DNA of 56,455 nt from a virus (Duplodnaviria > Caudoviricetes): positions 1 through 56,455 of IMG/VR virus record IMGVR_UViG_3300030117_005233, one strand, 5' to 3'. The translations under genes and the position numbers were made by a program. Shown one piece after another: positions 4,466 to 49,869 of this stretch; position 1 is the first letter of the stretch; every line of letters starts with the position of its first letter. The notes below the pieces were generated by a model. It saw nothing but the letters and a program-made list of their open reading frames with translations. It was not told the DNA's origin and ran no database searches.

Positions 4466-4498
4466 ATTGTTTGTCTTATCAGTGTCAATCATGTATAT

Positions 4499-4527: not shown

Positions 4528-4542
4528 CAAAAAAGAATCTAC

Positions 4543-4627: not shown

Positions 4628-4643
4628 GTAGGTCACTTTTCGA

Positions 4644-4672
4644 TTTACTTTTGATAGGTCATTTGGTATAAT
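4644..4672 (+). promoter_or_regulatory. Early promoter for the MoxR ATPase
   Basis: TTTACT-N17-TATAAT with extended TGG. Confidence 0.75.
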
Positions 4673-4702
4673 ATTACCATAACAACATAACAAAGGACTA
4701 AC

Positions 4703-14957: not shown

Positions 14958-15193
14958 TGGGTACACCTTTTATAGGACAACACGATAAAGCACAAGTAAG
15001 TATGATACTATTCTTATCTTGGGCTAACTTTGCATTGATGATAATGCTAATTAGTTGGTTAGTGGTATGGACCAATCATCAATAAATTTATTTTATGGTA
15101 TACTTTTTATAATAGTAATACCTATGATGGTAACTATTAGTTTACAAATATTTGAAGATGATGACGTTAAAAAAGAAAGACAACTTAAATGGC

Positions 15194-17363: not shown

Positions 17364-17971
17364 AGTATTTAGAAATAGCTGCAGCCAAAAAACGTGGATC
17401 TGAATGGGTTGCTGTTCGTGACGAATGTGATGATTACGATGGCGTACAAAAATATGATATGACAAACTTGCCTATGTCAGGTGTTCCAGATAATTGCTTC
17501 GATGGAATATATTCTGAACATTTTATCGAGCATCTATTTAAATATCAAGGGGTTAATTTTTTTAAGGAAGCTTTCCGCATACTTAAACCTGGAGGAATCA
17601 TTAGAACAGTTTGGCCTCCATATGAATTTGTAGAAAAATTAGTTAGTGATGAATCTTTAACTCAAGCTGAAAATAATTTTGTAGAACACTATTTTCAATT
17701 CTATGTTCAAAGGCATAACTTTGCTCCGTCTGGAAATGAACATCGTAGTAAAAGAGAACAATGTGCATTAGGATTATCATATCAAAATGGTGAACATCTA
17801 TATGTATGGCCTAAAAAAGAACTTATAGAAGTATGTACTGATATTGGATTTACTCGTGTAGAAGAAAAACTTTATAACGTAAGTAGTTTACAAGCATTCA
17901 ATTATATTGAAACACCTTGTCAAATTAGAGCAGCACATTCTGCTGTTGTGGAGGCAACGAAACCAGCATGA
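17360..17971 (+). CDS. SAM-dependent methyltransferase
   Basis: FDGIYSEHFIEHL...FRILKPGG. Confidence 0.8.
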   Translation: MKYLEIAAAKKRGSEWVAVRDECDDYDGVQKYDMTNLPMSGVPDNCFDGIYSEHFIEHLFKYQGVNFFKEAFRILKPGGIIRTVWPPYEFVEKLVSDESLTQAENNFVEHYFQFYVQRHNFAPSGNEHRSKREQCALGLSYQNGEHLYVWPKKELIEVCTDIGFTRVEEKLYNVSSLQAFNYIETPCQIRAAHSAVVEATKPA

Positions 17972-18378
17972 CAATAATTGCAGAATATAAAGGTAATCTA
18001 TCTGAGTTTACATATTTTTGGAAACCATTAATAATTAAACACGGCGAAGTTGAATTTATTTTTACTAATGGTAATGATTTAACAGGTGTAAAAACAGCTA
18101 ATAGTATTGAAGAAGCAGTCAGTATGAGTTCAAGTGAAAATATATTTTTAACAGATACTAATGGTATACCTACCTATGAAACAATGATATATTTAACGTC
18201 AATGGCTGGTAATGTTTGTTGTAATCCGGTTTGGCACGACTATAATAACGCACCCGCTGGTCAAAAAACAAACTCATTTACTATTTTAAAACAACAATTT
18301 ACAGGAACAGATTTTAATGAATATGTCAGTAAATGGAATCCAAAAGTGATTGAAGACTTAACATTATATAAGGTATGA
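17968..18378 (+). CDS. Hypothetical protein in the glycosylation island
   Basis: ATGA-coupled ORF with no recognisable motif. Confidence 0.5.
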   Translation: MTIIAEYKGNLSEFTYFWKPLIIKHGEVEFIFTNGNDLTGVKTANSIEEAVSMSSSENIFLTDTNGIPTYETMIYLTSMAGNVCCNPVWHDYNNAPAGQKTNSFTILKQQFTGTDFNEYVSKWNPKVIEDLTLYKV

Positions 18379-18382
18379 ATAC

Positions 18383-19738
18383 ATGATTAAATTAGTATTA
18401 TTTGATTTAGACGGTGTTTTAATTAATTCAAAAAAAATTCACTATGATGCAATGAATGTTGCATTACCTTCTCAATATAAAATTACTTATGAAGAGCATC
18501 TTAATTTATATGATGGTTTAAAAACAACTGAAAAGTTAGAGATGTTAACTAAAGAAAAAGAATTACCTTTATCTGAGCACAAAAACATATACGATGCAAA
18601 ACAACAAGAAACTATGAATCTTTTATCGAATTTAAAACCAAATAAAGACATAGTTGAATTATTTTATAGTTTAAATAGATTAGGTTATAAAATTGGTGTA
18701 TGTTCAAATTCAATTAGAAGAACAGTTTTAACTACTCTTGCTCAAACTAATTTGATAAAGTATTGTTCTGTAATTATGTCTAATGAAGATGTTAAGAATG
18801 GTAAGCCTCACCCCGAAATGTATTGGAAAGCAATGTCTATGTTAGGTCATTTACCAGAAGAAACAATTATTATAGAAGATTCACCACCTGGTTTATTAGC
18901 TGCAGAAAGATCAAGAGCAAATTATATTAGGGTTAAAGACCCAACAGAAGTGACATGCAAAAATATTTTAAATAAAATTAAAGGAGAAAATAAAGTGAGT
19001 AAGTGGAAAGATGATAAACTAAATGTATTAATACCAATGGCAGGTGCTGGTTCAAGATTTGAACAAGCCGGATATACATTTCCTAAACCATTAATACCTG
19101 TTAATGGAAAACCAATGATACAAGTTGTTGTAGATAATTTAGGAGTAGATGCTAATTTCCATTTTGTAGTTCAAAAATCTCATAAAGAAAAATATAATTT
19201 ACATTCAATGTTAGATTTAATTGCACCTGGGTGTAAAGTTATTGAAGTAGACGGTATTACAGAAGGTGCAGCATGTACGGCACTATTAGCTAAAGAGTTT
19301 ATTAATAATGATCAACCATTGTTATTTGCAAATAGTGATCAATTCTGTGAATGGAAACCAATTGATTTTATGTATAATATGCAAGAAAAAAATTGTGACG
19401 GGGGTATTGTAACATTTGAGAATACACACCCTAAATGGTCTTATGCAAGAATTGATAATAACGGTTTAATAACAGAAGTACAAGAAAAGAATCCTATATC
19501 TAAAGATGCTACGGTAGGATATTACTATTGGAAACATGGATCAGATTTTGTTAAGTATGCTGAACAAATGATTGAAAGAAATATACGCGTTAATAATGAA
19601 TTTTATGTTTGCCCTGTATTTAACCAGGCTATCGAAGCTGGTAAATCTATTAGAGCATTTCGTTCTGAAGGCATGTGGGGATTAGGTACACCTGAAGATT
19701 TAGAATATTTTGTTGCTAATTATAAGGAAAAAGTTTAA
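18383..19738 (+). CDS. HAD phosphatase fused to a sugar-phosphate nucleotidyltransferase
   Basis: FDLDGVL, GKPHP, IEDS; then LIPMAGAGSRF...PKPLI, EFYVCP, GLGTPEDL. Confidence 0.88.
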   Translation: MIKLVLFDLDGVLINSKKIHYDAMNVALPSQYKITYEEHLNLYDGLKTTEKLEMLTKEKELPLSEHKNIYDAKQQETMNLLSNLKPNKDIVELFYSLNRLGYKIGVCSNSIRRTVLTTLAQTNLIKYCSVIMSNEDVKNGKPHPEMYWKAMSMLGHLPEETIIIEDSPPGLLAAERSRANYIRVKDPTEVTCKNILNKIKGENKVSKWKDDKLNVLIPMAGAGSRFEQAGYTFPKPLIPVNGKPMIQVVVDNLGVDANFHFVVQKSHKEKYNLHSMLDLIAPGCKVIEVDGITEGAACTALLAKEFINNDQPLLFANSDQFCEWKPIDFMYNMQEKNCDGGIVTFENTHPKWSYARIDNNGLITEVQEKNPISKDATVGYYYWKHGSDFVKYAEQMIERNIRVNNEFYVCPVFNQAIEAGKSIRAFRSEGMWGLGTPEDLEYFVANYKEKV

Positions 19739-20476
19739 ATGAAAGTAGCTGTGTGTGTATCAGGTGTTCCTGAAAGTAGATATAATCTAATTAAAAGGAA
19801 TAATACTGTTCAAAAACTTAAATTTCCAAATGCAGACTTTTACTATGCAACATGGAAAGGTAGAGAAAAATTATTTTATGAAAATTTTCCAGATTATGAG
19901 TTACATACTTTTGATGAACCTGTAATGCATTATCACCCGTATATGGATATAAAAGATTTTACATCTCCATATTTTGAGGAAACTAAGTCTTGGGTAGTGC
20001 GGACAAATAGAATAGAATGGACTAGCCATCATACTAAACAAATTTTAATTCATGCAATGTTACTAGATAAAATAAAAGATAACTATGATGTTATAATCCG
20101 AGGAAGATTTGATAATTTTATTTGGAATGATAAAGCTGCAGACTTTACTCCATTTATAGAAGATACTTACAATAACAATAGAGCAAACTGTTTTGCAGTA
20201 ACTAATGGTCCAAAATTTAAAGAACAGTATGAATCAGATTATGAAAAAAATCCTAAAATGCGAGAATGGCCTTTAGATCAACTTATTATTCATCCAAGAA
20301 ATATGATTAATTTATCTGATATACTACAACTTCATAAGGAAAAAAAATTAAGAGCAGCAGAGTATGGTTGGCATCAAGTTCTAAGTGAACCATACGGTAA
20401 TAATCATAGAAACTGGCACGGATGGGTTAATCACGATAAAAATGTTCCTTATCAATTTATAAAGGAGGCAGAATGA
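19739..20476 (+). CDS. Putative glycosyltransferase
   Basis: MKVAVCVSG...YDVIIRGRFD. Confidence 0.6.
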   Translation: MKVAVCVSGVPESRYNLIKRNNTVQKLKFPNADFYYATWKGREKLFYENFPDYELHTFDEPVMHYHPYMDIKDFTSPYFEETKSWVVRTNRIEWTSHHTKQILIHAMLLDKIKDNYDVIIRGRFDNFIWNDKAADFTPFIEDTYNNNRANCFAVTNGPKFKEQYESDYEKNPKMREWPLDQLIIHPRNMINLSDILQLHKEKKLRAAEYGWHQVLSEPYGNNHRNWHGWVNHDKNVPYQFIKEAE

Positions 20477-21168
20477 AAAATATAATATTACAACATTATA
20501 CAGGTGAATTAGGTGAATTAGAAAAATTATCTCAGGCAAATATGATTAAGTATGCAGAATTTTGTGGTGCTGAATACAGATTATTGAGCGGTGATTTATT
20601 TAATGAAGAATATCCATGGGAACCTACGTTATATGCACCAAACCAAAAGATGCATATGATGAGTAAAGAGTTTGATGATTATGATATTGTACTAATGGTC
20701 GACATAGATATGTTTACACGAAAAGGCATGACAGAAAATATATTTACAGATGTAAAAGGTATAGGAATGTATACAGACTTTCAACAACATTTATTTGGTG
20801 GTTTAAAAAGACACTTTCCTGATATAGTCGATTTAAATTATCCTTACTGGGGAGGCGCAATATACAGATTAGAAAAAGCACAACGCGTACAATTAAGAGA
20901 ACACATTAAAGATAATATGAAAGACATTGCAAGATTTGATAGAGGATTTAATGATGAAGGAGCAATGCACCTATTAGCTAAACTTTCAGATTTTAAAGAC
21001 AGAGCAATTTTACCAGGTGGATTTAAATGGTGTCATTGCAGTTATCGAGAAGGAATAGAAAACTCAGCAATGATACACATTAGACCTAAGGTAACACCCG
21101 TAGGACCAAAGAGACCTAAAATAGAAAATTATAGAGAATTAGTTAGAAAAGGATTAATAGAAGAATGA
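20473..21168 (+). CDS. GT-A glycosyltransferase, paralogue 2
   Basis: MKNIILQH, YAEFCGAEY, VDIDMF, NDEG. Confidence 0.7.
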   Translation: MKNIILQHYTGELGELEKLSQANMIKYAEFCGAEYRLLSGDLFNEEYPWEPTLYAPNQKMHMMSKEFDDYDIVLMVDIDMFTRKGMTENIFTDVKGIGMYTDFQQHLFGGLKRHFPDIVDLNYPYWGGAIYRLEKAQRVQLREHIKDNMKDIARFDRGFNDEGAMHLLAKLSDFKDRAILPGGFKWCHCSYREGIENSAMIHIRPKVTPVGPKRPKIENYRELVRKGLIEE

Positions 21169-21977
21169 AAAATTTAATTTATCAATATTGGGATGGAGAT
21201 ACTTCTAGGCCAGGAGTAATTGCTGGCGTTAAAGCAATGAAAAAGTATGCAGAGAAAATCGGCGCGGAATATTTATTTGAAGATAATCCAAGGTATTATA
21301 CTCATCTAGGTCCTTACAGTCCACACTATGGTCAGTTTAAATTAATACATGAAGAAAAATTTAGTGATTATGACCATATCATGTTTGCTGATACAGATGT
21401 ATTTCCTGTTGAAAAGTTAGAGAAAAGTATATTTGATGATTTAACTGCAGACATAGGAATATGCGCAGAAGGATGGATGACTAAAAACAAAGGTAAAACT
21501 CCTGCTGAATCATATAATCCGATATGTAGAGACGCAGATGAAGTCTGGGCAGCTAAACTAGAACAACGGTTTGGTGTTAAATTCCCTAGATGCGAAGAAA
21601 CGAATCATTTAATGATGTACAATTCAGGTATGGTAGTGTATAATAATAAAGGTTTAAAGGAAGCAAAACAAAAATTTATGCAATACGAGGATTATATAAG
21701 AACAATTAGTCCATGTGCTTCATTTTACACATGCGATCAACCATATTTACATGCACAATTAATTATTAAAGATATTAATTGGCAACAGATGGATCCAGCT
21801 TGGAATTGTTTTGTACATTATATAGGACACCCAGCTATAAAACCAAGACCAATTAATGACACAAGAGTAAACGGAGAAGGTAATTTTATTCACATTCAGC
21901 TTAGAGGTGCAGATGATTTCGATGAAGAAAAATTATGGAGAATAACTAATTTACCTCAATCAGAATGGAGAATATAA
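21165..21977 (+). CDS. GT-A glycosyltransferase, paralogue 3
   Basis: MKNLIYQY, YAEKIGAEY, ADTDV, YNSG, DQPYL, AWN. Confidence 0.75.
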   Translation: MKNLIYQYWDGDTSRPGVIAGVKAMKKYAEKIGAEYLFEDNPRYYTHLGPYSPHYGQFKLIHEEKFSDYDHIMFADTDVFPVEKLEKSIFDDLTADIGICAEGWMTKNKGKTPAESYNPICRDADEVWAAKLEQRFGVKFPRCEETNHLMMYNSGMVVYNNKGLKEAKQKFMQYEDYIRTISPCASFYTCDQPYLHAQLIIKDINWQQMDPAWNCFVHYIGHPAIKPRPINDTRVNGEGNFIHIQLRGADDFDEEKLWRITNLPQSEWRI

Positions 21978-22564
21978 TGCAAATTTTTAAATATAAAGAT
22001 TATGAGCACTACGTTAAAGAACAAACTTTTTATAATAAAGAAAAAATAGCGTGGAGCTTCTTTAATAAACAAGGTCCGAGAAAAGGTATATTAATTCTAA
22101 TGATTGAAAAATATTTTGGAGAATCAGCTAATAATAAAGATGTCATATGTCACGGTACTCGCGGGGGTCACGAACAACAATTTTTTAAAGGCTTATTCCC
22201 AAAAGGGCATATACAAGGTACAGAAATTAGTGATACCGCATCACAATTTCCAATGACGGTTGAATGGGACTTTACTAAACAACATCCAAGATGGGTTAAT
22301 AGATTTGATATAGTTTATTCTAATTCTTTTGACCACTCGATAAATCCACAAGAAACTTTACGTGTTTGGCACGAGCAACTTAGAGAGGGCGGTTTTATGT
22401 TTATAGAATGGGCTGAGGGAGACTCTGTGTGTACATTAAATGATCCTCTTGATGCATCTGCGAAAGAGATTACTAAACTAATTAAAAAAACAGGATTTGT
22501 AATAGAAGAACAACACGTCATAGGTGTTTCTCAAGGTAATATGTATATATGTAGAAAGGTTTAA
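21977..22564 (+). CDS. SAM-dependent methyltransferase
   Basis: ICHGTRGG, GTEIS, FDIVYSNSFDH, LREGG; start 21965 or 21977. Confidence 0.75.
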   Translation: MQIFKYKDYEHYVKEQTFYNKEKIAWSFFNKQGPRKGILILMIEKYFGESANNKDVICHGTRGGHEQQFFKGLFPKGHIQGTEISDTASQFPMTVEWDFTKQHPRWVNRFDIVYSNSFDHSINPQETLRVWHEQLREGGFMFIEWAEGDSVCTLNDPLDASAKEITKLIKKTGFVIEEQHVIGVSQGNMYICRKV

Positions 22565-22566
22565 TT

Positions 22567-23154
22567 ATGTTAACAGCAACAATAGAAAATGCAAGTACAC
22601 TAGAAGAGTTTTATGAACAAATAAGAAGTCAACAGGAGGATCCTAAAAATCATGGGCCACATTATTGTTCACACCATGATTTAATAAAAGAGTTTGCGCC
22701 AGGATGCACATCTTATAAAGAGCTTGGAACACATCAAGGAGCATCTGCTGCAGCCGCTCTTTTAGCTGGATTTAAAGAAGTTCATTTTGTAGACCATACT
22801 TTAGAAAAGTATAATTGGCAAAAACATTTATTTGAAAAGTATTGTGAAGAAAATGAAGTTGATTTAAATGTATATGAATGTTCTTCAATTCACCATAGCA
22901 CAGCCGTAACTACAGATGTACTTATGATCGATTCATTACATGATTGGTCTTGGACAATTTTAGAGTTAGATCATCATGCTCCACTTACAAAAAAACATAT
23001 TATATTTCATGATACTACAACCGTAAATGGAAAGCCTTCTAATATATGGCCAGGTATTAATATGTGGTGTAAAGTAAATGCAGATAAGTGGTATGTTAAT
23101 CGTAGAAATTTAGAAAATGTTGGATCAACAATAGTAAGTAGAGTGGGTGTATGA
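22567..23154 (+). CDS. Class I methyltransferase (Methyltransf_24-like)
   Basis: ELGTHQGAS, LMIDSLH, IIFHDT. Confidence 0.75.
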   Translation: MLTATIENASTLEEFYEQIRSQQEDPKNHGPHYCSHHDLIKEFAPGCTSYKELGTHQGASAAAALLAGFKEVHFVDHTLEKYNWQKHLFEKYCEENEVDLNVYECSSIHHSTAVTTDVLMIDSLHDWSWTILELDHHAPLTKKHIIFHDTTTVNGKPSNIWPGINMWCKVNADKWYVNRRNLENVGSTIVSRVGV

Positions 23155-23840
23155 AAGCATTTATAATATATCAAAGAGATAATCCAGATTCTGTTAAAGT
23201 AACTAAAGTATTAAAAGAATCGATAGAGCAAACCCAATCCGATATTAATGTTGAAATGTTTAATGCAATTACACCTAGTTCTCCGCCTAAAGAAATTCCA
23301 GATGAATTATTTGACATAACATATACATATCCTAGAGAAGGACAAACCAGATATGATACTAAAACAGGTCTTACTTTGACTGGTTACGTTGCATCATCTG
23401 CAGATGTTAAACTTGCTTGTACTTTAAGTCATGCTAAACTATGGAAAAAATGCGTTGAACTAGACGAAGAGATAATGATACTAGAACACGATGCATTTTT
23501 CTTAAGAAAGTTTGAACCATTTGAATGGGAAGGTGGTATATTAGGATTAAACGATCCAAGAGGCGCAACAAGAAAATCTATGGTTTTTCATGGCGAAGCT
23601 TCTAAGGTAAATGGTATTTCTAATTGTCCATACGTAGATACACAACCTGTACCACAAGGTCTTGCTGGTAATTCAGCATATATTATAAAACCATTTGCTG
23701 CAAAACATTTATTAGAAAAACTAAAAGAGTTTGGTGCTTGGCCAAATGATGCACTTATGTGTAATCAAGTTTGTCCATGGTTAAAAGTAATTCATCCGTA
23801 TTACACAAGAGTTCAAGGAGGAATAAGTACTACAACATGA
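23151..23840 (+). CDS. GT25-like glycosyltransferase
   Basis: ACTLSHAKLWKKC, ILEHDA, AYIIKP.AA. Confidence 0.8.
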   Translation: MKAFIIYQRDNPDSVKVTKVLKESIEQTQSDINVEMFNAITPSSPPKEIPDELFDITYTYPREGQTRYDTKTGLTLTGYVASSADVKLACTLSHAKLWKKCVELDEEIMILEHDAFFLRKFEPFEWEGGILGLNDPRGATRKSMVFHGEASKVNGISNCPYVDTQPVPQGLAGNSAYIIKPFAAKHLLEKLKEFGAWPNDALMCNQVCPWLKVIHPYYTRVQGGISTTT

Positions 23841-24574
23841 GAATATTAATTACAGGTCATAAAGGTTTTATCGGAAGTCGTCTCTGGGAAAGATTAGATC
23901 ATGAATCTATTACACTTTATGGCATAGATATAAAAGATGGTGACGATATTTTAGATACACCATTGCCTGAAGTTGATTTAGTTATTCACTTAGCAGCAAG
24001 AGCAGGCGTTAGAGAGTCTGTAAAAGATCCTAAAACATATTGGGAAACAAATGTCGAAGGTTCTAAAAGAATTATAAAACATTATAAAGATACAAGAATA
24101 TTAGCTGCAAGTTCTAGTTCGGCATATGCACCTCATCTAAATCCGTATTCTGCTACTAAATATATTATGGAGCAGATACCTCATAATAATATTTGTTATA
24201 TGAGGTTTCACACCGTATATAATGATTCAGCTAGAACAGGAATGTTCTTTGATAAATTATTTAAGGGTACTGTAAAATATATTACAAAACATGAAAGAGA
24301 TTTTATTCATTTAGAAGATATGTGTGATGCATTAGAATTACTAATAACGAATCCAAATGTAAAAGGGACGTTTGATATAGGAACGGGTAAAACAATTAAG
24401 ATGAATGATATATGTCCTGATCTTCCTATTAAAACAGATACACCAAGAGAAAGAGAAAGAACATGCGCAGATACAAGTTTTATGACAATAAACTGTGGCT
24501 GGCAAGCAAAACGTTTAGTAACGGAGTTTTTAAAGGAGAATAGTGAAATCATACGTTATTACAATAATGGATAA
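23837..24574 (+). CDS. NAD-dependent sugar epimerase/dehydratase
   Basis: Start re-called to 23837; ILITGHKGFIG, HLAA, YSATK, RDFIH. Confidence 0.88.
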   Translation: MRILITGHKGFIGSRLWERLDHESITLYGIDIKDGDDILDTPLPEVDLVIHLAARAGVRESVKDPKTYWETNVEGSKRIIKHYKDTRILAASSSSAYAPHLNPYSATKYIMEQIPHNNICYMRFHTVYNDSARTGMFFDKLFKGTVKYITKHERDFIHLEDMCDALELLITNPNVKGTFDIGTGKTIKMNDICPDLPIKTDTPRERERTCADTSFMTINCGWQAKRLVTEFLKENSEIIRYYNNG

Positions 24575-25196
24575 TCCTCGTTCTGTTGAAGTGGCAAAAC
24601 GATGTATTGAATCAGGTAAAAAGTTTGGTATTGAAGTAGAACATCATCCAGGATTTACACCTAAAGATAATCCTGAACAAATGATGATTGATAAAGGTAT
24701 AAACTACGATAGATTTAAAAATAATCAATATTCTAGATTCGAACCGTGCATGGCTGCATTTTTATCTCATCGTGAATGTTGGAAAAAAGCTATAGAGTTA
24801 GACGAACCCGTTTTAGTATTAGAACACGATGCAGTTTTTACTGCTCCGTTACCTAAAGTTGATATTGCATTTAAAGTTATATCTTTTGGTAAACCATCTT
24901 ACGGATCATACAGAGCTTCAACTAAAGAAGGATTTTTTGCAGTATTTTCTAAGCCTGGAGGCTATTTACCTGGCGCTCATGCTTATTTAGTAAGTCCAAG
25001 AGGAGCAAAAATTTTAGTTGAAAAATCTTACATGCTTGCAGAACCAACTGACATATATTTAAAGAAAGATAATTTTCCATGGCTAACAGAATATTATCCT
25101 TGGCCCGTAATGGCAGACGATTCTTTCTCTTGTATTCAATTAGATGAAGGTTGTAAGGCAAAACATAATTATAATAAAGGCATTGAAATAATATGA
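24543..25196 (+). CDS. GT25-like glycosyltransferase
   Basis: FLSHRECWKK, VLEHDA, GAHAYLVSP. Confidence 0.8.
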   Translation: MKSYVITIMDNPRSVEVAKRCIESGKKFGIEVEHHPGFTPKDNPEQMMIDKGINYDRFKNNQYSRFEPCMAAFLSHRECWKKAIELDEPVLVLEHDAVFTAPLPKVDIAFKVISFGKPSYGSYRASTKEGFFAVFSKPGGYLPGAHAYLVSPRGAKILVEKSYMLAEPTDIYLKKDNFPWLTEYYPWPVMADDSFSCIQLDEGCKAKHNYNKGIEII

Positions 25197-25852
25197 ACAA
25201 AACATTTATAACCGGTGTAGATAAAAATTTACAAGACTTATTACCTTGGTGGATTAATAATATTCGTAAACACGATACTGAAACACACATTACAGTAGCT
25301 GACTTTGGTATGGACGAAAACTGGGCGGCATGGGCTAAAAAGAGTGTGAACTGTTTTTTAAGTTATCCTCCTCATAAACGTTGCGCATGGTTTTATAAGC
25401 CACATACTTTAATCAAAGCTCCATACGAATATAAATGTTGGATTGATATTGATTGCGAAGTATTGACTAATATAACAGAGATATTTGACTTTGTAGACGG
25501 AACTAATTTAGCATTAACTGATGATCCATGTAGAACAAGAGAACCTGGAGATCCTAATCCAAAATGGTTTGCTACTGGTGTAAATGTTGTAAAAGGTAAT
25601 CCTAAAATTTTAAAAATTTGGGATAGATGGACAAGACCGGGAGATGGTGTAAAAACATGTCACTTTCGTGGTGACCAAGAGTGTTTGCACAAACTTCTTT
25701 CCACAGGCACTTTACACGAAAGTGTAGTTGAGATGCCGATGGAGTATCAATGGTTAAGAATACAACTTGCAAGAGGAGAAGATAATCCTAATAAAAAAAT
25801 TATCCACTGGACAGGTCCAGCAGGAAAAGATCACATTAGATCAAAAATGTGA
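25193..25852 (+). CDS. GT-A glycosyltransferase (GT8-like)
   Basis: WIDIDC, TGV, GDQE, IIHWTG. Confidence 0.75.
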   Translation: MNKTFITGVDKNLQDLLPWWINNIRKHDTETHITVADFGMDENWAAWAKKSVNCFLSYPPHKRCAWFYKPHTLIKAPYEYKCWIDIDCEVLTNITEIFDFVDGTNLALTDDPCRTREPGDPNPKWFATGVNVVKGNPKILKIWDRWTRPGDGVKTCHFRGDQECLHKLLSTGTLHESVVEMPMEYQWLRIQLARGEDNPNKKIIHWTGPAGKDHIRSKM

Positions 25853-26863: not shown

Positions 26864-26892
26864 TTTACTTTTAACTTAAAATAAGGTAGTAT
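26864..26892 (+). promoter_or_regulatory. Early promoter heading the nucleotide-modification operon
   Basis: TTTACT-N17-TAGTAT. Confidence 0.6.
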
Positions 26893-26899
26893 ATATAAC

Positions 26900-27271
26900 A
26901 TGGTTGACGAAAAAAATACACAAAAAGAATCAATAAAAGTTCTGCAAGAATGTGCAGAGTTACAAATCAAAAAGTCTCAAGACTATAATAATCCAGACAG
27001 CCGAGTAAGACAAGAAATGTATTATACTCGTGGCGTTGCGACTCTACTAGATATTATGTGGGGTAAAATGCTTCGCATGTATTCTGTAGTAGAAGCTATG
27101 GAAAACGACATAGACTATAATCCTAACTTTGAGTCGCTAGAAGATTCAGCAAAAGATATGATTAACTATTCATCTTTTGTTGTCGCATATCTTCGTAATG
27201 GTATCGATGGCCAAGATGGTACAAAAGACTTCTTAGGTAGGAGAAAAAAGAATGAGACAACCGACGGTTGA
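26900..27271 (+). CDS. Nucleotide-modification-associated domain 1 (DUF1599/Nmad1-like)
   Basis: KKSQDY...K..R...ESLEDSAKDMINY. Confidence 0.7.
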   Translation: MVDEKNTQKESIKVLQECAELQIKKSQDYNNPDSRVRQEMYYTRGVATLLDIMWGKMLRMYSVVEAMENDIDYNPNFESLEDSAKDMINYSSFVVAYLRNGIDGQDGTKDFLGRRKKNETTDG

Positions 27272-27434
27272 GGTAAAACTAAAACGCGGAGAAAAAGTAG
27301 AGAGAGCTCTAAAAAGACTCAAGCGTAAACTCGATAAAGAAAACATTTTACAAGATTATCGAGATCGTCGTTATTATAAAAAACCCAGTGAAATTCGTAA
27401 AGACGAACGTAACGCAAGACGAAGGAGAAAATGA
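27252..27434 (+). CDS. rpsU: Ribosomal protein bS21
   Basis: EVKLKRGEKVERALKRLKRK...RRYYKKPSEIRK. Confidence 0.88.
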   Translation: MRQPTVEVKLKRGEKVERALKRLKRKLDKENILQDYRDRRYYKKPSEIRKDERNARRRRK

Positions 27435-27586
27435 AAGCAGCAACATGTGAGGTAAGATCTAATCGTATTCGTAAAATACAGAATGGTGGGTATACAGATA
27501 TTTTTCAAAGAGAAGCAGAACAAGAACGTAAGCGTAAACAAAATCAAATATTTCAAAGCTTTAGATCTGGAGGTAGACGTTGGTAA
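27431..27586 (+). CDS. 51-aa basic hypothetical protein
   Basis: Below the ORF-track cutoff; ATGA overlap with the rpsU stop; MKAATCEVR...RSGGRRW*. Confidence 0.55.
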   Translation: MKAATCEVRSNRIRKIQNGGYTDIFQREAEQERKRKQNQIFQSFRSGGRRW

Positions 27587-28299
27587 AAGTAGAAGATATT
27601 AGATGGCAACTTGCAAACAAACATAACGATCTCGATTATGTTACTGATAAATCAGGTTGTAAAATGCTTGAAGTTATTAACGCAGCATTTATTGCTGATA
27701 AAGATTATATATTTCGTGAACCTAATCAAGACTATATCGAACGTGAATTAGAATGGTATAAATCAAAGTCTTTAAATGTAGATGATATTCCAGGCGAAAC
27801 GCCAAAAATATGGAAAGATGTTTCTGATGAAAATGGAGTAATTAATTCTAACTATGGATATCTTATTTGGTCTGCAGATAATATTTGTCAATATGAAAAT
27901 GTTCGTATTGAACTAGGAGAAAATCCAGAATCAAGACGTGCTACAATGATTTATACAAGACCAACTATATGGTTAGATGCATTTAAAAATGGTATGTCAG
28001 ATTTTATTTGTACTAATAATGTTCAGTATTTTATTCGTGACAATAAACTTGTAACATCTGTGTATATGCGATCTAATGATGCAGTATTTGGTTACAACAA
28101 TGATTTAGCGTGGCAAAAACATGTGCGAGATAAACTTATTGATGATTTAGAAATAGACACATACAACAGATACGAACCTGGTCCTATATTCTGGAACGTC
28201 GGTTCATTCCATGTTTATGAACGTCATTTTCAACATGTTGAAAAATGGATGAAAGCAAACTTTTTAGAAGCAAGTAGACCGGAGTGGTTTGAACTATGA
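27580..28299 (+). CDS. gp42: dCMP hydroxymethylase (T4 gp42-like, thymidylate synthase fold)
   Basis: RELEWYKSKSL, DIPGETPKIW, INSNYG, GMSDFICTN, MRSNDAVFGYNNDLAWQ, WNVGSFHVY, closely matching T4 gp42 as recalled; GGAGG SD before the TTG. Confidence 0.88.
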   Translation: MVKVEDIRWQLANKHNDLDYVTDKSGCKMLEVINAAFIADKDYIFREPNQDYIERELEWYKSKSLNVDDIPGETPKIWKDVSDENGVINSNYGYLIWSADNICQYENVRIELGENPESRRATMIYTRPTIWLDAFKNGMSDFICTNNVQYFIRDNKLVTSVYMRSNDAVFGYNNDLAWQKHVRDKLIDDLEIDTYNRYEPGPIFWNVGSFHVYERHFQHVEKWMKANFLEASRPEWFEL

Positions 28300-28796
28300 T
28301 AAACAAATGGGATAAAAGATTTATTCAAATGGCCAAAGAAGTTGCTTCTTGGTCAAAAGATCCTTCACAGCAAGTAGGTTGTATTGCCGTAAAGCACAGG
28401 AGAATTATAGCTACAGGTTATAATGGGTTTCCTATCGGCATTGAAGATAAAAACCTAGAAGATAGGGAACACAAATATACATATATGGTTCACGCAGAAA
28501 AAAATATGGTGTATAATGCTTGTCGACATGGTGTATCTTTAGTTGATAGTGAAGTATATGTTTATGGATTACCTGTTTGTGGAGAATGCTGGAAAGGTCT
28601 TGTTCAAGTAGGTGTTAAAAAAGTTATAATGCCAGATGTAAATCATATAATAAATGAAAGATGGCATGAATCTTGTACTTGTGGATATTTAGGCATGAAA
28701 CAAGTTGGTATTGAAGTTGTTACATATAAAGGTAGAGATTTAGATGATAGTAATTGTGGGTCAGAACCCGTCGACTGCCAAACAGAAAAAGAATAG
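28296..28796 (+). CDS. cd: dCMP deaminase
   Basis: SKDPS, TGYNG, HAEKN, PVCGEC. Confidence 0.92.
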   Translation: MINKWDKRFIQMAKEVASWSKDPSQQVGCIAVKHRRIIATGYNGFPIGIEDKNLEDREHKYTYMVHAEKNMVYNACRHGVSLVDSEVYVYGLPVCGECWKGLVQVGVKKVIMPDVNHIINERWHESCTCGYLGMKQVGIEVVTYKGRDLDDSNCGSEPVDCQTEKE

Positions 28797-29085
28797 TACG
28801 TTTGATCGATTAGGTAAGTGGACAAAAGCCGTTGGTTTAGAATCATATGACTTTATGAATTGTAGTGACGATCCCGGCGATAAATACGAGATAGATTATG
28901 ATAGACTATCTACAACTAAAAAGTATAAAAAAGTTATCGCATTAGGTGGAGTTGCTTCGAAAGCACTTTCAAAAGTTGGTGTAGAACATTTTAAAATGCC
29001 ACATCCGTCACCGCGTAATAGACAACTAAACGATAAACAATTTGAGATTGATATGTTATTTAAAATGAAAGAATATTTATTATGA
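28744..29085 (+). CDS. Minimal uracil-DNA glycosylase superfamily protein
   Basis: VIVGQNPS (motif A), VIALG, PHPSPRN (motif B). Confidence 0.7.
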   Translation: MIVIVGQNPSTAKQKKNSTFDRLGKWTKAVGLESYDFMNCSDDPGDKYEIDYDRLSTTKKYKKVIALGGVASKALSKVGVEHFKMPHPSPRNRQLNDKQFEIDMLFKMKEYLL

Positions 29086-30050
29086 TAGTTAACCCAGTTA
29101 CAAATATACCAGTAAATCCTAAATCACACATTCATGGTTATGCACAAAAATGGTCAGGACTTTTAGATGAAAAGATAAGTCACAAATGTAATAACTTAGA
29201 TGAAGAATTATTTGTTGAACATGGTGTAAACTTTAGTGGCGCACTAAATCTTTTTGGTGGTGCTAACGAAGATTTATACAATAGATTTGAAAATGCAATG
29301 AAGGTAAAAATAATTACCTCACTTGATATTGATATGCCGGACTATGGAGCTATGATTAAAAAACGTATCGGCGCTAAAACTACTTTTGAAGGTATCACTG
29401 AAGAATGGTGTGATAAAGTATCTGAGTGGTGCGAGAGTGCAGAAAGATATGGAATGGAAGATTATGCAATAGATAATCCTGAAGTAGGAATCACAGTTGG
29501 TGATTCTCATGCTCCTTCTTTTGCTGCAAAAGGTGATGCCATATTTGTGAACAATGCTAAGACACTTCATGGTGCCGTAGTTAAATCTACTTTAGACACA
29601 TTGATGAGAGGTGTAGATGCAAAGAACAGAAAGGTCACTTTTTGTTTCGGTTCTATTGATATACGACATCATTATCTAAGAGATAATAATATACAATACA
29701 TGGAAGATACAATTAAAAAATATATTAATCAAGCTTTTCAGATAACAGATGATCCGTATTTTGCAGCACCAGTTCCTGTTGAATACGAAGGTCGTAAGAT
29801 ACCTAAAACAGGATGGAGAAAGGGAACACCTTTCTATGGTAGCTTAGCAGAAAGAAGTGGTATAACAGAAGAGTTTATTAGAGTAGTAGACGATCACTCA
29901 GGCGGAAGACTAATACATCCTCCATGGGAATGGTATGAGATGTGTCCTGAAAAATATGCAAAAACTCATATGGAACTAAACTCCAGTTTTCACATTGCTC
30001 CACTTTATTATAGAAGTGAGAACTGGGGTCAGAACGATTTTATTGGATAA
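29082..30050 (+). CDS. Protein with an SGNH/GDSL-like C-terminal domain
   Basis: VGDSH (block I), FGSIDIRHH (block III-like), SSFHI (block V-like). Confidence 0.55.
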   Translation: MIVNPVTNIPVNPKSHIHGYAQKWSGLLDEKISHKCNNLDEELFVEHGVNFSGALNLFGGANEDLYNRFENAMKVKIITSLDIDMPDYGAMIKKRIGAKTTFEGITEEWCDKVSEWCESAERYGMEDYAIDNPEVGITVGDSHAPSFAAKGDAIFVNNAKTLHGAVVKSTLDTLMRGVDAKNRKVTFCFGSIDIRHHYLRDNNIQYMEDTIKKYINQAFQITDDPYFAAPVPVEYEGRKIPKTGWRKGTPFYGSLAERSGITEEFIRVVDDHSGGRLIHPPWEWYEMCPEKYAKTHMELNSSFHIAPLYYRSENWGQNDFIG

Positions 30051-30943
30051 TGGCTCATGATAATCACATAGTCGATGGAGTTAACTTAGATGTTGGTCCA
30101 CTATATTCTCTTGAAGATGCAAAGAAAGAATACTTAGAACTTGCATCTGATTGGGAAGATCCTTACGGTCCGCCTGTCGTAAAAGAACATAATGGTGTAA
30201 GAGTTGTAAGAGATGATTTACTTACAGGTTCTAAAGTTCGTGGCGGTGATTGTTTAATATCTTCATTACCAGAACATATTGATACGATTGTTTATGTTCA
30301 ACCAAGAACCGGATTAGCAGGTGTTTCTATATTAGATGTTGCAAAGCATCACGGCAAAAAAGTAAAACTATTCATGCCATCAAGTAAACAAATATCTTAT
30401 CATCAAGCTTGTTGTATTGAACGTGGTTGTGATTATGAGTTTCATCGTATTGCTGCAATGCCTAATTTAAATAGACTTGCAAAGTTATGGGCGATGGAAC
30501 ATGAAAACTCTTTCTTTGTTCCGTTAGGATTAAAACATCCAAGAGTTACAGCTGGTATTGTAAAGACAGCTTCATCTATTCCAGAACCTGATGAAGTTTA
30601 TTGTGCAACATCAACAGGTGTACTTACGCGCGCTTTACAAATAGCTTGGCCAAATGCTAAGTTTACTTCTGTTTGTGTATCTAGAAACATGAAAGCTGGT
30701 GAGTTAGGTAGAGCAGAACCAATATCAGAAGCATTAGCATTTACTTCAGCTGAGAAAGAAAGTAACTTACCACCTTTTCCAACAATAGATACTTATGATG
30801 GTAAAGCATGGAAGTATGTACCAAAGGAATCAGATAAAGATATTTTATTCTGGAACGTAGGCGCAGAACCTGTTTTAAAAGACGATACACTTTATACAAA
30901 GATAAACAGTTACAGAGATTGGGCAAAGAATGCAGACGACTAA
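30050..30943 (+). CDS. PLP-dependent enzyme, fold type II (ACC deaminase/D-Cys desulfhydrase-like)
   Basis: VRDDLLTGSKVR (Schiff-base Lys), ATSTGVL, YDGKAW, LFWNVG. Confidence 0.82.
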   Translation: MAHDNHIVDGVNLDVGPLYSLEDAKKEYLELASDWEDPYGPPVVKEHNGVRVVRDDLLTGSKVRGGDCLISSLPEHIDTIVYVQPRTGLAGVSILDVAKHHGKKVKLFMPSSKQISYHQACCIERGCDYEFHRIAAMPNLNRLAKLWAMEHENSFFVPLGLKHPRVTAGIVKTASSIPEPDEVYCATSTGVLTRALQIAWPNAKFTSVCVSRNMKAGELGRAEPISEALAFTSAEKESNLPPFPTIDTYDGKAWKYVPKESDKDILFWNVGAEPVLKDDTLYTKINSYRDWAKNADD

Positions 30944-32120
30944 GTACTACGAAGAGTTTAAAAGATACTATGCATTAGCAGAAGATCAGCAAGGTAAAAC
31001 AAATCTAGGTTGGCAAGATTATGATGGATCGACCGAAGATGATTTGATGAATAACGTACAACTATATGATGTAGTTGAAAGAAAGCTTGCTGGTTTCTCA
31101 CAGATTATGAATGATGCATTCTATGGAAAATCAAAAGAACATCCTTACTACGATAAGATTCAGGCTGGTCATAGTACTAAACAACGTACATACATGCTTG
31201 ATAAGTGGGAAGGTAGACAAAGTGTTTATGGATTAAGAGAATGGTTATATGTTTTTCTAATTCATCGTGTTACTGGTTCTGCAATCAATTACGGCACAAT
31301 ACCTTCTGGTTATCACAACACAATTTTATTTGATCTATATCAATGTGATACCGTAAAAGAAATGACGCAGCTTGTACCACATTATCGTAAAACATTTTAT
31401 ACTTCTATTGGTTATCAGTTTCCAAGATTTCCTAAACCACCTACAGGATTTCATAGAAACAATTACAATGCTGATCTTGTAGAATATAAAAGAGGAGGAG
31501 ATTATTATCTGGCGGAGTTTGCACCAAGACTTGTAGATGATATGGCCACATGGTTAGAGTCAGGAAAGAAACGTGACTTTAGAGAAATGGGTAACTGGAT
31601 GTTTGACTGGAACACGAAGAATGGTTTAGTTAAATATAAGTTTCAATACGCGGCATATCTTGCAGACATTGCAGATTGGTTACCACAATTTGTAAATAGA
31701 GAATCACTTTTTTACTATGGAACAAACGCAGTTGAATGTATATCATATATGACCGAAGGTAAAAAGAAAGACGAGAAGACATTAGATAATGTTATGAAAA
31801 TGATATACGAAGATCTTGGTTCTTTACCTTATAATGCAGAGGACGTTTGTTGCGACTTTATCAGATGGGTAGAAAATTATATTAGACCCGGCGCGCACTA
31901 TAATAATCTTGATCGTGATAAAATATGGTCATCATCAAAGATACTCGATCATCCGTGCGGTAGACAAAAAGCAATGTTAGACTTAGGATTAGTAGAGTCG
32001 TTTAATACACTTAACTATCATCCGTCTGACTTAAAAGTTATTGAGTCTAATAATCTAACCGTTGATAAATATAAAAATATGGTAAATAATGTTTTACTTG
32101 TTGAACAAAATATGGTATAA
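30930..32120 (+). CDS. aGPT-Pplase-like amino-acid:DNA transferase (HhH glycosylase-like fold)
   Basis: YDVVERK.AGFS, FQYAAYLADI, YYGTNA, AEDVCCDFIRW (cf. E..LCE..K motif); adjacent to the PLP gene. Confidence 0.62.
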   Translation: MQTTKYYEEFKRYYALAEDQQGKTNLGWQDYDGSTEDDLMNNVQLYDVVERKLAGFSQIMNDAFYGKSKEHPYYDKIQAGHSTKQRTYMLDKWEGRQSVYGLREWLYVFLIHRVTGSAINYGTIPSGYHNTILFDLYQCDTVKEMTQLVPHYRKTFYTSIGYQFPRFPKPPTGFHRNNYNADLVEYKRGGDYYLAEFAPRLVDDMATWLESGKKRDFREMGNWMFDWNTKNGLVKYKFQYAAYLADIADWLPQFVNRESLFYYGTNAVECISYMTEGKKKDEKTLDNVMKMIYEDLGSLPYNAEDVCCDFIRWVENYIRPGAHYNNLDRDKIWSSSKILDHPCGRQKAMLDLGLVESFNTLNYHPSDLKVIESNNLTVDKYKNMVNNVLLVEQNMV

Positions 32121-36298: not shown

Positions 36299-36640
36299 TT
36301 ATCCACCAGCTAAAACATTTGGTGAACCTTCTGCAACAGAAGTATTAGGTCCTGCACTTGTTCTTATTTTATCTCCGATTCTACCGATACCTTTACCATT
36401 AACAAAAACTGTTCTAGATCCTACAGCTATTTCATCCCCGGGATGAAAAGTGCAGTTAGGGTGCAATGGGGTTCCAGCTGGAGTATACAGATGTGGCAAA
36501 CCTAAATGCGGTGTATTAGTATGACCTTGACAAGATACTTTTATACCGTTAACAAAGACATTATTTGAACCTTGCCTTCTACGTGGAATTTCTTTACATT
36601 CCATCATTTCTTTATCTCCAACTCTACATACTCCTGGCAT
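36299..36640 (-). CDS. PAAR spike-tip protein (gp5.4-like)
   Basis: MPGVCRVGD, GSNNVFVNG, GSRTVFVNG.GIGRIGD, GSPNVLAG; late promoter TATAAATA on the minus strand at 36646-36653. Confidence 0.9.
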   Translation of the reverse strand: MPGVCRVGDKEMMECKEIPRRRQGSNNVFVNGIKVSCQGHTNTPHLGLPHLYTPAGTPLHPNCTFHPGDEIAVGSRTVFVNGKGIGRIGDKIRTSAGPNTSVAEGSPNVLAGG

Positions 36641-36648
36641 AACTATAT

Positions 36649-39600
36649 TTATAATACTGGTGAGAAGTTATGTAAATTTATTGATGTTATCGTTTTTGCT
36701 TGTTGGTATGTATCTGTGGCTGTAGTATTATAACTTATTCTACCAAAAGTAGGAGAGTTAGTCCATAGGTGTGGAGACTGGCCAATTGGGGTCATTCCGT
36801 ATGAACCGGGAAAACGACTTTTTGTTTCATTTAATGGCCATGGGCTATCACTTATTAGATTTTTAATTAGTGCCATGTCTCTACGTAGTTCATTTATTGC
36901 CATTGTTGCTCCACCATTATCATAATGTTTAGCTTGGAAATTTGCAAAAATTAGATAACTATCACCAATAGGCTCTGTGTTAATAGAACCATTTATTTTT
37001 CTTCTTGCCCTCCAATAAGGGTCACCACCAATTCGTTCATACAATTCTTCGTAATCATAATAGTCAGAACTATATCCAGATGGATCCTCCCTGACTTCTT
37101 CTAAAGTTGGATAATTATTTGCAGCTACATTCATTTCAACGGTATATGCCGGCGAATTTTGTTTATGCAGTACATATTCATCTCCATTAGCATCTACTTT
37201 TAATATATTCCAATATGCGTTTCTAGTGTATCTGTCTATTCTATCCTCAAGCGTAAGGCCAGTTCCCGCGTAAGGTGAACTGGTTATATCAGGATCAATT
37301 AATAATTCTAATTTATATTTTTCGCCGAATTCATCCATAGGAGTTTCAAATAAAGTTCCGTTAATGCGATCATATTTAGAGTTAATGCCAGTACGACTTT
37401 TAATACCATCAACATCATCACCCGATTCAGCCGCAGAAGGTTCATCTATGTTAACATATGCTCTAAGCTCTCTTCCTATACCTTGCGCTACGGTATTAAA
37501 TACCGGTTTATTATATTGCACTAATTCTATTTCATTAGTTACTATTCCGAGTTCACTAATTCTTTCTATTTGATATGCAACTTGATATGGCACAATTCTT
37601 GAAGGAGTATTGTCTACCGTAATATCAAATACTGTATTTGCTGTAGGTGGAAGAGGCCAACCATATCCTTTATAATCTTTAATTAATTCTTTACCGCTAT
37701 ATCTTTTTAAATTAAAACCTGCATAATATGTAGGTGAATCTTCAGAATCATACTCAGTTTTTAATTCAGTTCCGCTTTGATCAGACCATTTAGCAGTAAG
37801 TATTGTTGCATTTGGAGAATCAGCCGTGTATAAAGCAGGCGCATCAGGAATACCAGTTACTTGAGTGGTATAATTAACTCCATAAAAAGTAGGTATATAA
37901 TATGGCGGAGCTTCCATTTGTTGATCTGTATGATCGAATATTGCTTCAGCTCGTCTTCTTGCTTGCGACCAGCTTGTGTCCCATAATTCAGAAAAGATCG
38001 GCGCTTTTTCTATTGTGCCAACTTGTGGAGCTATTTTATTAGAAGTTAACCAGCTTGTTGTAAGTGTGGCAGCAACTATATCACGATCAGGGTTTTCATA
38101 ACCCTGAAAGAAGCGATAGTTTTCTTGGTTATAATCTGAAAAATTCTGCTGATCAAATAACAGTCCTGAAGAGGACTTTACATAAGTTTCTACAGGCCAA
38201 CTACCTAATGGATCTTCTTCATCGATAATATAATCTACTTCCCAATTTGCAACATCACTAGGCATACCGGTTTGAGTGTAAACAGTATCGCCGCTAACAG
38301 GTTTTAATTTCTCTTGGCCTGTAAAATAATCAAGATAACCAAATTCGCTGACTTTAATTTTACTAAATACAATAGAATAGTTTCTAAATCTAGACTGAAA
38401 TAGGAATGTATTGACTCCCTGTGATCGTGCCAGAGTCGGCGCGACATGATCTACAGGCCTAGTATCATAAAATAAATTTCTCATGACAAAAGCAATAGAC
38501 GGGACTGTATTTTCTAGTACAACAACACTGTCTTCATTCCTGTAATTGGCTCTAGCTTCGAAAGCTATATCTGACGCGTGCTCTTCAGGATGATAGTAAT
38601 CTCCACTTGTATAAAAATATCCTGTTTTCTTTAGTACTGAACGTGAAAATCCATCATCAAATAGCTTAGGATAGCCATCACTACCTAAAGACGTGTAAGC
38701 TAAAGATGTGCTAAAGTACATAACAGGTCTAAAATTATAAGGGAACGAAGACCAATTTACAGGTATCCAATGATGATGTTTAAATCTTTTATCTACAGTT
38801 CCATAATGTAAATTTGTACATCTATCATTTGAACCATTTCCATCATGCGCTTTAATATATTCATCTCTTGCTTCAATACTGTTCATAAGAATATCATTTG
38901 GAAACTCTTCGAATATTTGTTTTTCCTCTGGTGGATTATATTGACTACTAGTGGGTGCACTATAATAATAGCCTGTTCTGAAACTAGTAAATCCATCCTC
39001 TTCTTCCTCAGGATGTTTTGTTCTCATTGCAACTTTTGATTTATTCCCTGCGCCTCTTGCATCAACTAGCATCCATGTAGTATTAAGTCTAGGATCTGTA
39101 AATCCGGTTGTTGTCATCCTTATAGATTTAGGATCTATCATTGAATCTATTTCATCTCTTCTATATTTTTCATCGACGTATATTTGAAATATTTTATTTC
39201 CTTGTTTATATAATTCAGTTCCGTTATGGGTATTATTATAACTATAACTGCCGTTCCAAGTTCCGCCATCACTGATTGCATATTGAAAATTATCTTTTTT
39301 TATTTCAAAATCAGCGTGAACTGCGTTTTGTATTATTAACTTGCCTCCGGCATCTCCACTTTTAGAAATTTTAAAGTGATTATCTTGGCTATAAAATACA
39401 GGTGAGTTAACACCATAAAAAAGTGGATTACTTTGAAGTGGATTAGGATATGGTCCCCATTGATAGAAAGTAGAATTATTTAAATTCCATGCTTCTATAG
39501 GTGAATTACTATTGATAAATCCTTCAGCTGCTATAGTTATAATCTCAGGACTTTGTCGATTTATAATATCCGTATCTGCAATAACAACTTGGAATGTTGT

Positions 39601-49863: not shown

Positions 49864-49869
49864 AAACAC

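Follow-up and report, generated by a model that had tools for sequence, protein, structure and literature searches.

A candidate operon for kinase-less decoration of 5-hydroxymethylcytosine in an uncultured marine T4-like phage

Here, we describe a computational analysis of an operon at 26900-32120 in a 56,455-base stretch of DNA from an uncultured marine T4-like phage (IMG/VR record IMGVR_UViG_3300030117_005233; the whole stretch is referred to as the window). On balance, we favor the reading that this operon encodes a post-replicative, kinase-less decoration of 5-hydroxymethylcytosine (hmC) with an amino-acid-derived group. Very probably, cytosine is the target base; the DNA of this phage probably contains a decorated form of it that is absent from the literature found. 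The operon encodes (i) a deoxycytidylate (dCMP) hydroxymethylase of the T4 gp42 type (27580-28299); (ii) orf322, a two-domain protein with an N-terminal alpha/beta domain (residues ~1-130) and an SGNH fold (29082-30050); (iii) a pyridoxal phosphate (PLP) fold-type II enzyme of the M6 gp52/ViI gp226 family (30050-30943); and (iv) orf396, an all-helical protein predicted to have the helix-hairpin-helix (HhH) glycosylase fold of the aGPT-Pplase superfamily (30930-32120). As the initial annotation had it, nine open reading frames (ORFs) lie head to tail on the + strand; overlaps of 1 to 53 nucleotides occur at eight of the nine junctions, and a 26-nucleotide gap follows the operon before uvsX. Elsewhere, the window encodes a sliding clamp, a clamp loader, RegA, a family B DNA polymerase, UvsX and a gp41-type helicase.

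The gene at 27580-28299 encodes a 239-amino-acid protein that shares 55.1% identity with T4 gp42 across 98% of its length and matches PDB 1b49, the T4 enzyme, with an E-value of 3.9e-85 (residues 3-234 onto 7-239). The catalytic Cys is kept ('DFICTN' in the window, 'DFMCTN' in T4; counted on the alignment, T4 C148), as are the acid three residues ahead of it in the 1b49 alignment and the Asp at the position of N177 in Escherichia coli ThyA ('GYNND' in the window, 'GFRND' in T4; counted as T4 D179). This Asp selects dCMP, and roles have been assigned to the ThyA N177 and L143 positions (PMC13326640). The stretch of the thymidylate synthase (TS)-fold enzyme quoted in the initial annotation, MRSNDAVFGYNND, is present in the sequence, and its final Asp is the residue that aligns with T4 D179. 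According to the same 2026 paper, some gp42 look-alikes, e.g., RB69 gp48, make 5-hydroxy-dCMP, and such synthases are marked by having Asn, instead of Asp, at the ThyA D169 position (PMC13326640). At this position, the window and one related locus read 'MRSND', whereas RB69 gp48, which is only 24% identical in an alignment with the window enzyme, reads 'MRSQN'. The Asp led us to reject a 5-hydroxy-dCMP synthase of the RB69 type and argues that the enzyme is of the hydroxymethyl type, making hydroxymethyl-C and not hydroxy-C. Among 36 gp42-like ORFs near the cassette, counting that of the window, 35 have MRSND with an Asp eight residues on; the remaining one has no match to the motif. Altogether, the 55% identity, the catalytic Cys and the three diagnostic Asp residues bear out the earlier identification as a gp42-type dCMP hydroxymethylase, and the sequence indicates that the enzyme should make 5-hydroxymethyl-dCMP.

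The next gene encodes a dCMP deaminase (28296-28796; Pfam dCMP_cyt_deam_1, 1.7e-18; phrog_174, 1.2e-37), and in our survey of 80 related IMG/VR loci, a dCMP deaminase gene directly follows the gp42-like gene in 33. The initial annotation had raised the alternative that the deaminase opens a route to 5-hydroxymethyluracil (hmU). In such a scheme, the deaminase would convert hydroxymethyl-dCMP, or hmC in DNA, and the same three enzymes would act on hmU to give a hypermodified thymidine. The recurrent gene pair fits this scheme, as does the role of dCMP deaminase as a pathway part in hmU phages; moreover, every characterized system with an amino-acid:DNA transferase (AADT) and a PLP enzyme acts on hmU (PMC8989533). 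However, ThyX is present in three of four large relatives, and the gp42-like gene is the only ThyA-fold gene in each, which argues that these phages make thymidylate (dTMP) in the usual way. Also, the P-loop 5-hydroxymethyl-dU (5-hmdU) DNA kinase (PF18748; M6 as positive control) is absent from the window and from all five larger relatives searched (33-99% complete), and the window has no match to the AADT profile PF18724. dCMP deaminase is, furthermore, an ordinary component of T4-type nucleotide metabolism. We find the hmU route quite improbable, and most likely the deaminase supplies deoxyuridylate (dUMP) for normal dTMP synthesis.

The evidence on orf396 comes mainly from its predicted structure. 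The AlphaFold2 model is all helical (predicted local distance difference test [pLDDT] 81.8; predicted template modeling score 0.83), and its top match among 48,161 solved chains is 8z2m, PaMx11 gp46 (Z 8.3, root mean square deviation [rmsd] 3.9, 206 residues), a glycine:DNA transferase that acts as 5-phosphomethyl-dU (5-PmdU) glycinyltransferase. The DNA-bound structure 8z2n, a realigned Foldseek match, gave a Z of 9.2 (rmsd 3.7, 207 residues), although the tool warns that Z values of 8-9 may arise by chance for helical proteins, a caution that tells against our reading. The next 13 matches are all of the HhH-GPD type (queuine salvage enzyme, AGOG, OGG, AlkA, Mag1, NTHL1, endonuclease III and MagIII), and we regard this consistency of the list as a stronger argument for the predicted fold than Z itself. 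Among the models in BFVD, orf396 best matches a protein of 55% identity, carried by UniProt under the label 'Amino acid:DNA transferase domain-containing', followed by weaker matches to AADT, HMUDK_hel and 'Pplase1' proteins and to endonuclease III. In the ESM Atlas, PF18723 (HMUDK_hel) is found on a minority of members in 25 of the 30 nearest named clusters (11-13% in the best three), and a cluster in which 99% of members carry PF18723 aligns to orf396 with template-modeling (TM) scores of 0.55/0.73. By sequence, orf396 gave no tblastn match in 50,697 phage records, and its profile found nothing among PDB sequences at an E-value of ≤1. Thus, of the proposal that 30930-32120 is aGPT-Pplase-like, the HhH fold stands, with PaMx11 gp46 as the best solved match, while membership in the AADT family PF18724 by sequence does not.

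Two residues of orf396, E304 and C308, are invariant in 48 family sequences with identities down to 22%, and D305 and D309 are nearly invariant. The resulting motif, Glu-x3-Cys-x-Phe/Trp, is common to orf396, M6 gp51 ('EVETVLCKW'; Glu243 and Cys247) and M6 gp55 ('EHTLCEF'). M6 gp51 and ViI gp247 require both this Cys and the Glu close to it (PMC8989533), and Cys247 of PaMx11 gp46 is the proposed C6 nucleophile (PMC11472151). We propose that orf396 may flip the base and perform a Cys-dependent group transfer. The family is abundant: among 2,040 candidates, 927 clusters at 90% identity pass an E-value of ≤0.001, as do 167 representatives at 50% identity, and 517 of 558 IMG/VR stretches encode a relative.

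orf322 has no Pfam family and matches phrog_13881, to which no function is assigned. In its AlphaFold2 model (pLDDT 91.9), residues 133-317 have an SGNH fold, in line with the earlier 'SGNH-like' label; the best match is 4rw0_B (Z 11.6, rmsd 3.4, 156 residues), Foldseek probabilities reach 1.00, and all 50 matches listed are SGNH-fold proteins (esterases, lipases, O-acetyltransferases and other SGNH domains), among them the peptidoglycan O-acetyltransferases OatA and PatB at Z 9.8-9.9. G140-D141-S142-H143 and H304 are invariant in 33 orf322-family sequences, and we infer from its position that H304 is the catalytic His of block V. The Asn of block III is not conserved in the family (Ser in the window), three of the 33 members weakly match Pfam Lipase_GDSL, and a PDB search with the sequence profile gave one chance match only. 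For the N-terminal domain, the fold lists were filled by the SGNH domain, and the Atlas returned only generic alpha/beta proteins with TM scores under 0.5. Possibly, residues ~1-130 resemble the N-terminal half of T4 beta-glucosyltransferase (BGT): 8 of the 33 members weakly match PF09198, the BGT family (best E-value 0.002; not the protein of the window), and hhalign aligned the orf322 profile with BGT over 43 columns (probability 38%, E-value 3.3e-4; 'NLFGG' and 'NFFGG'). BGT is an hmC-DNA enzyme, and this weak resemblance is a further argument against an hmU target. Importantly, all seven orf396-family representatives of 639-790 amino acids are fusions with an orf322-like N-terminal and an orf396-like C-terminal half. 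We take these fusions as decisive for functional coupling of the two predicted proteins, with orf322 apparently an obligate, sometimes fused, partner of orf396. The initial annotation had noted neither this partnership nor the absence of the DNA kinase that all characterized pathways contain. By analogy, we propose that orf322 may activate or acylate the hydroxymethyl group.

The PLP enzyme falls below the cutoff of the Pfam PALP family (19 bits compared with 35), and a PDB search with its sequence alone found nothing. It matches phrog_7093 at 1.8e-36, a group that M6 gp52 itself matches at 2.2e-159; BLASTP against gp52 gave 26% identity over 269 amino acids (E-value 3e-9), and a 22-sequence profile aligned with gp52 over 219 columns in hhalign (probability 96.1%). 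In this alignment, the invariant Lys62 falls on gp52 Lys36, which has been named as the proposed aldimine Lys; M6 gp52 decarboxylates the glycine adduct on DNA experimentally (PMC8989533). These three comparisons place the PLP enzyme, as anticipated, in the M6 gp52 decarboxylase family, and based on sequence similarity, we propose that 30050-30943 encodes a decarboxylase of an amino-acid adduct on DNA. Among cultured phages, matches to the PLP enzyme are limited to Erythrobacter vB_EliS_R6L gp1, Microcystis Mae-JY30 and Erythrobacter ZS04 (30-32% identity over 77-78%), where they lie inside large ORFs annotated as 'DNA modification methylase'; this suggests that a PLP-like domain is fused to a DNA methyltransferase in these three phages.

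The survey of related loci revealed a recurring gene order: Nmad1-like gene, gp42-like gene, deaminase, small uracil-DNA glycosylase (UDG), orf396, often a second gene of ~330 amino acids, the PLP enzyme and orf322 in either order, uvsX and gp41. Among the 29 loci with flanks longer than 2.5 kb upstream and 4.5 kb downstream, orf322 is present in 28, the PLP enzyme in 24, both in 23 and the second gene in 16. The latter is a paralog of orf396 (hhalign probability 81%, E-value 1.2e-5, including 'IEDKLCFF'). In T4, the order is 43, imm, 42, beta-gt, segA, uvsX, 40, 41; by lying between gene 42 and uvsX, the cassette occupies the slot of T4 beta-gt. In one 260-kb relative (L088 1315-3273, − strand), an Asp-type TS homolog adjoins a second orf322-like gene (361 amino acids) ~75 kb from the orf396 locus of that record; in a 160-kb relative (L087; G004 159103-159801), the gp42-like match has one in-frame TGA; and in another locus, a C5 cytosine DNA methyltransferase gene (L024 12075-13274; Pfam 2.3e-17) directly follows the cassette.

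We suggest the following pathway. The gp42-type enzyme would convert dCMP to 5-hydroxymethyl-dCMP, which, as judged from T4, would enter DNA in place of C, and the dCMP deaminase would feed dUMP into ordinary thymidylate synthesis. orf322 and orf396 would act as one two-part enzyme, in which orf396, with its helical HhH fold, binds DNA and turns the base outward and the SGNH domain of orf322 (Ser142 and His304) converts the hydroxymethyl group into an ester. This ester would stand in for the phosphorylation carried out by the P-loop 5-hmdU DNA kinase in the characterized pathways. Cys308 of orf396 would then attack C6, the leaving group would depart, and an amino acid would join the exocyclic methylene, as with the M6 and PaMx11 transferases. 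Finally, the PLP enzyme (Lys62) would decarboxylate the adduct to give an aminoalkyl or aminoalkoxy side chain. Such a modification would probably serve to shield the phage DNA from host nucleases. A live variant is that the ester itself is the product and that orf396 serves only as a DNA-handling subunit.

A related scheme leaves out decarboxylation. Here, orf322 and orf396 alone would make an O-acyl or O-aminoacyl ester of hmC, with orf396 as the DNA-binding, base-flipping subunit, a part that the helical domain may also play for the 5-hmdU DNA kinase, and the PLP enzyme would catalyze some other reaction. This scheme is in keeping with the presence of OatA and PatB among the SGNH matches listed, with the position of orf396 nearer PF18723 than PF18724, and with the fusions, which, together with an Atlas cluster, mirror an architecture of kinase plus helical domain; likewise, Aeromonas phages have a fused protein and no homolog of the PLP enzyme at an E-value of ≤1e-3. 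However, the invariance of E304 and C308 would be unexpected for a pure DNA-binding domain, even though M6 gp55 keeps the motif, and the PLP enzyme is a full-length homolog of proven decarboxylases. We consider an ester as the sole outcome unlikely, and we continue to favor decoration with an amino-acid-derived group. More speculatively, and with doubts that outweigh our confidence, orf322 and orf396 might constitute a new kind of DNA-base enzyme, i.e., an SGNH acyltransferase with a base-flipping partner that leads via an hmC ester to an undescribed aminoalkyl- or aminoalkoxymethyl-cytosine that marine T4-like phages would commonly carry and that would also occur, with the enzyme in fused form, in phages 44RR, 31 and 25.

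Several observations weigh against decoration with an amino-acid-derived group as set out above. The chemistry of the decoration, i.e., the amino acid, the linkage and the decarboxylation, is inferential. orf396 has no Pfam family at an E-value of ≤10 and no PHROG, and none of 38 distant relatives match PF18724 or PF18723, compared with an E-value of 1.4e-46 against PF18724 for the M6 gp51 control. In hhalign, the orf396-family alignment matched 26 AADT sequences with a probability of 1%, and two such alignments (A1 and A2) found nothing in M6 gp51. A comparison of the family with M6 gp55, a clade 1 protein, gave a weak alignment over 75 columns including the Cys motif (probability 6.4%, E-value 0.0058), with no match for A1 against gp55 or for A2 against ORF233c of Aeromonas phage 44RR2.8t. 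The nearest named relatives of orf396 are those of the kinase-associated helical clade PF18723, for which we know of no catalytic role. Cys308 is likened to Cys247 by motif and spacing, and since gp55, which lies outside the transferase clade, also has E-x3-C, the motif is no proof of transferase activity. Therefore, an assignment of orf396 to the AADT family by sequence is not upheld; hhalign and the Atlas place it nearer clade 1 (HMUDK_hel), and taking model and sequence together, we conclude that orf396 probably represents a separate family within the aGPT-Pplase superfamily.

Further points against this reading concern the gene set. The window is a fragment with an estimated completeness of 31%, and the second orf396 paralog, found in 38 of the 80 related loci, is missing from it in a search with a 38-sequence hidden Markov model at an E-value of ≤10, so that its enzyme set may be incomplete. 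Of the 39 loci that extend over 3 kb upstream, only 21 have a gp42-like gene. Five further records lack gp42 in the locus; two of these (88-89% complete) encode one elsewhere, and three (20-46% complete) do not. In addition, we know of no SGNH enzyme that acts on DNA bases.

A third explanation places the decoration of hmC outside the operon. The initial annotation correctly stated that no T4-type glucosyltransferase is adjacent; yet, two GT25-family glycosyltransferases and nucleotide-sugar genes are present 2-8 kb upstream. They belong to a sugar block at 15152-25852 that separates the operon from the DNA polymerase/primase genes and lies in the slot from gene 43 to gene 42, in which RB69 holds its DNA arabinosylation genes. 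Besides the GT25 genes (23151-23840 and 24543-25196), the block has a gene for an NAD-dependent epimerase (23771-24574) and one in which a HAD hydrolase and a nucleotidyltransferase are fused (18383-19738), along with methyltransferase-like ORFs (17351-17971 and 22567-23154) and ~8 ORFs without a family. Its products could modify DNA by glycosylation or change the surface of the host. If they glycosylated hmC, the cassette would serve repair or free nucleotides, and the HhH-fold queuine salvage enzyme, which acts on a free nucleotide, indeed matches orf396 at Z 7.8. Against this, GT25 genes are found in none of the 80 related loci, in which the cassette is conserved, and the closest characterized relatives of the cassette proteins act on DNA bases. 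Sugar clusters of this kind are common variable islands in marine phages. Glycosylation by the upstream block accordingly strikes us as very doubtful, and we prefer to assign the decoration of hmC to the cassette.

The window shares parts with each of the closest systems and matches none. M6, ViI, PaMx11 and PhiW-14 combine a dUMP hydroxymethylase, a 5-hmdU DNA kinase, an AADT of PF18724 and a PLP decarboxylase, as described in PMC8989533 and PMC11472151. In common with these phages, the window has a TS-fold hydroxymethylase, an HhH-fold protein with Glu-x3-Cys and a PLP enzyme that falls in the PHROG of M6 gp52; its relatives also resemble the thymidine pathways in having paralogous pairs of the helical protein. 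Unlike the thymidine pathways, the window has a dCMP-specific hydroxymethylase, no P-loop DNA kinase, an SGNH-fold protein as a fixed partner and a helical protein that lies outside both Pfam models and the AADT profile. The window resembles T4 in its gp42 and in the order 43 ... 42 - modifier - uvsX - 41; however, it has neither alpha-gt nor beta-gt, and the modifier slot is taken by the SGNH, PLP and HhH-fold genes. Moreover, the weak N-terminal resemblance of orf322 to BGT comes without the UDP-glucose-binding half. The arabinosyl-5-hydroxycytosine pathway of RB69 and DLP3 is likewise T4-like, with a TS homolog that has the dCMP-specifying Asp and with modification genes between 43 and uvsX (PMC13326640), but differs at the ThyA D169 position, as described above. 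The claim that such a combination of enzymes on hmC is undescribed is supported by our literature search, which yielded no paper joining these enzymes to hmC; among the papers listed, none mentions SGNH.

In cultured phages, orf322 homologs were found only in 38 Aeromonas, 3 Tenacibaculum and 2 Stenotrophomonas records. ORF233c of 44RR2.8t (795 amino acids) is homologous to orf322 in its N-terminal third (28-29% identity over 97%), matches phrog_13881 at 1.2e-111 and weakly matches PF18723 at its C-terminus (E-value 0.0036, under the cutoff). Homologs are present in Aeromonas phages 31, 25, Aes508 and phiAS4, and the phage 31 protein is a weak entry in the BFVD fold list of orf396. The gp42 of 44RR is 53% identical to that of the window and of the Asp type (MRSND...RND). 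In contrast to the window, 44RR2.8t has one fused protein that does not adjoin gene 42, and no PLP-enzyme homolog was found. In phages 44RR, 31 and 25, genes 42 and 56 are present and a glucosyltransferase is absent; for such gene-42 phages, Petrov et al. (2010) left open whether hmC is further modified (PMC2993671). Directly upstream of ORF233c in 44RR2.8t lies ORF234c, a sodium:solute symporter (L081 4399-5922; Pfam SSF, 6.2e-53), which may import the group donor.

All characterized DNA hypermodifications of the amino-acid type are on thymine and begin with a DNA kinase, and the characterized decorations of hydroxymethyl- and hydroxy-cytosine in the papers cited here are sugars; a carbamoyl derivative has reportedly come from MetaGPA. 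A kinase-less cytosine version, if true, would extend the known repertoire by one modified base and one mode of activation. Our reading, if correct, would also explain the fate of hmC in those T4 relatives in which gene 42 comes without a glucosyltransferase, a question raised in PMC2993671. The abundance of the orf396 family argues that the decorated base may be common in the sea; in that case, it would bear on evasion of restriction and CRISPR, on bias in virome sequencing and on sources of DNA-modifying enzymes. Because the Aeromonas phages are already in culture, the idea is testable now.

The remaining genes of the operon are less directly connected to the pathway. At its head, 26900-27271 encodes a small helical protein for which the earlier 'Nmad1-like' label is weakly supported: it scores under the cutoff for Pfam DUF1599 (E-value 0.084; 13.7 bits compared with 25) and matches phrog_1485 at 7e-12 and phrog_18404 ('hydrolase') at 1.9e-10. 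In 29 of the 80 related loci, a homolog precedes the gp42-like gene. The ribosomal protein bS21 gene (27252-27434; Pfam Ribosomal_S21, 7.6e-17) sits within the operon, yet it is probably not a pathway component; it is present in none of the 80 related loci. It is followed by a 51-amino-acid ORF without any match (27431-27586). The 113-amino-acid UDG-superfamily protein (28744-29085; Pfam UDG, 27.1 bits with a cutoff of 24.3) has the motif GQNPS close to the N-terminus and HPSPRN close to the C-terminus; a PDB sequence search gave no useful match. Homologs are present in 19 of the 80 loci (e.g., L024 7601-8005), mostly directly upstream of the orf396 homolog. We take the two motifs to recall SMUG1-type glycosylases, which remove hydroxymethyluracil; if it is of this type, the short protein could clear deaminated hmC. 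A consensus scan of the operon found 31 promoter-like sites compared with 35.7 in shuffled sequences, i.e., no excess, and no convincing terminator inside the operon.

Outside the operon, the − strand of the window carries a single ORF of 4,406 amino acids (36649-49869) adjoining a gene for a small PAAR-motif protein (36299-36640, − strand; Pfam 1.6e-8). At 2330-5863, a 743-amino-acid protein (phrog_459, 'peptidase', with a weaker match to cobalamin biosynthesis) faces a CbbQ/AAA_5 ATPase (phrog_249, 'porphyrin biosynthesis'), and the two resemble the CobT/CobS-like pair of marine phages.

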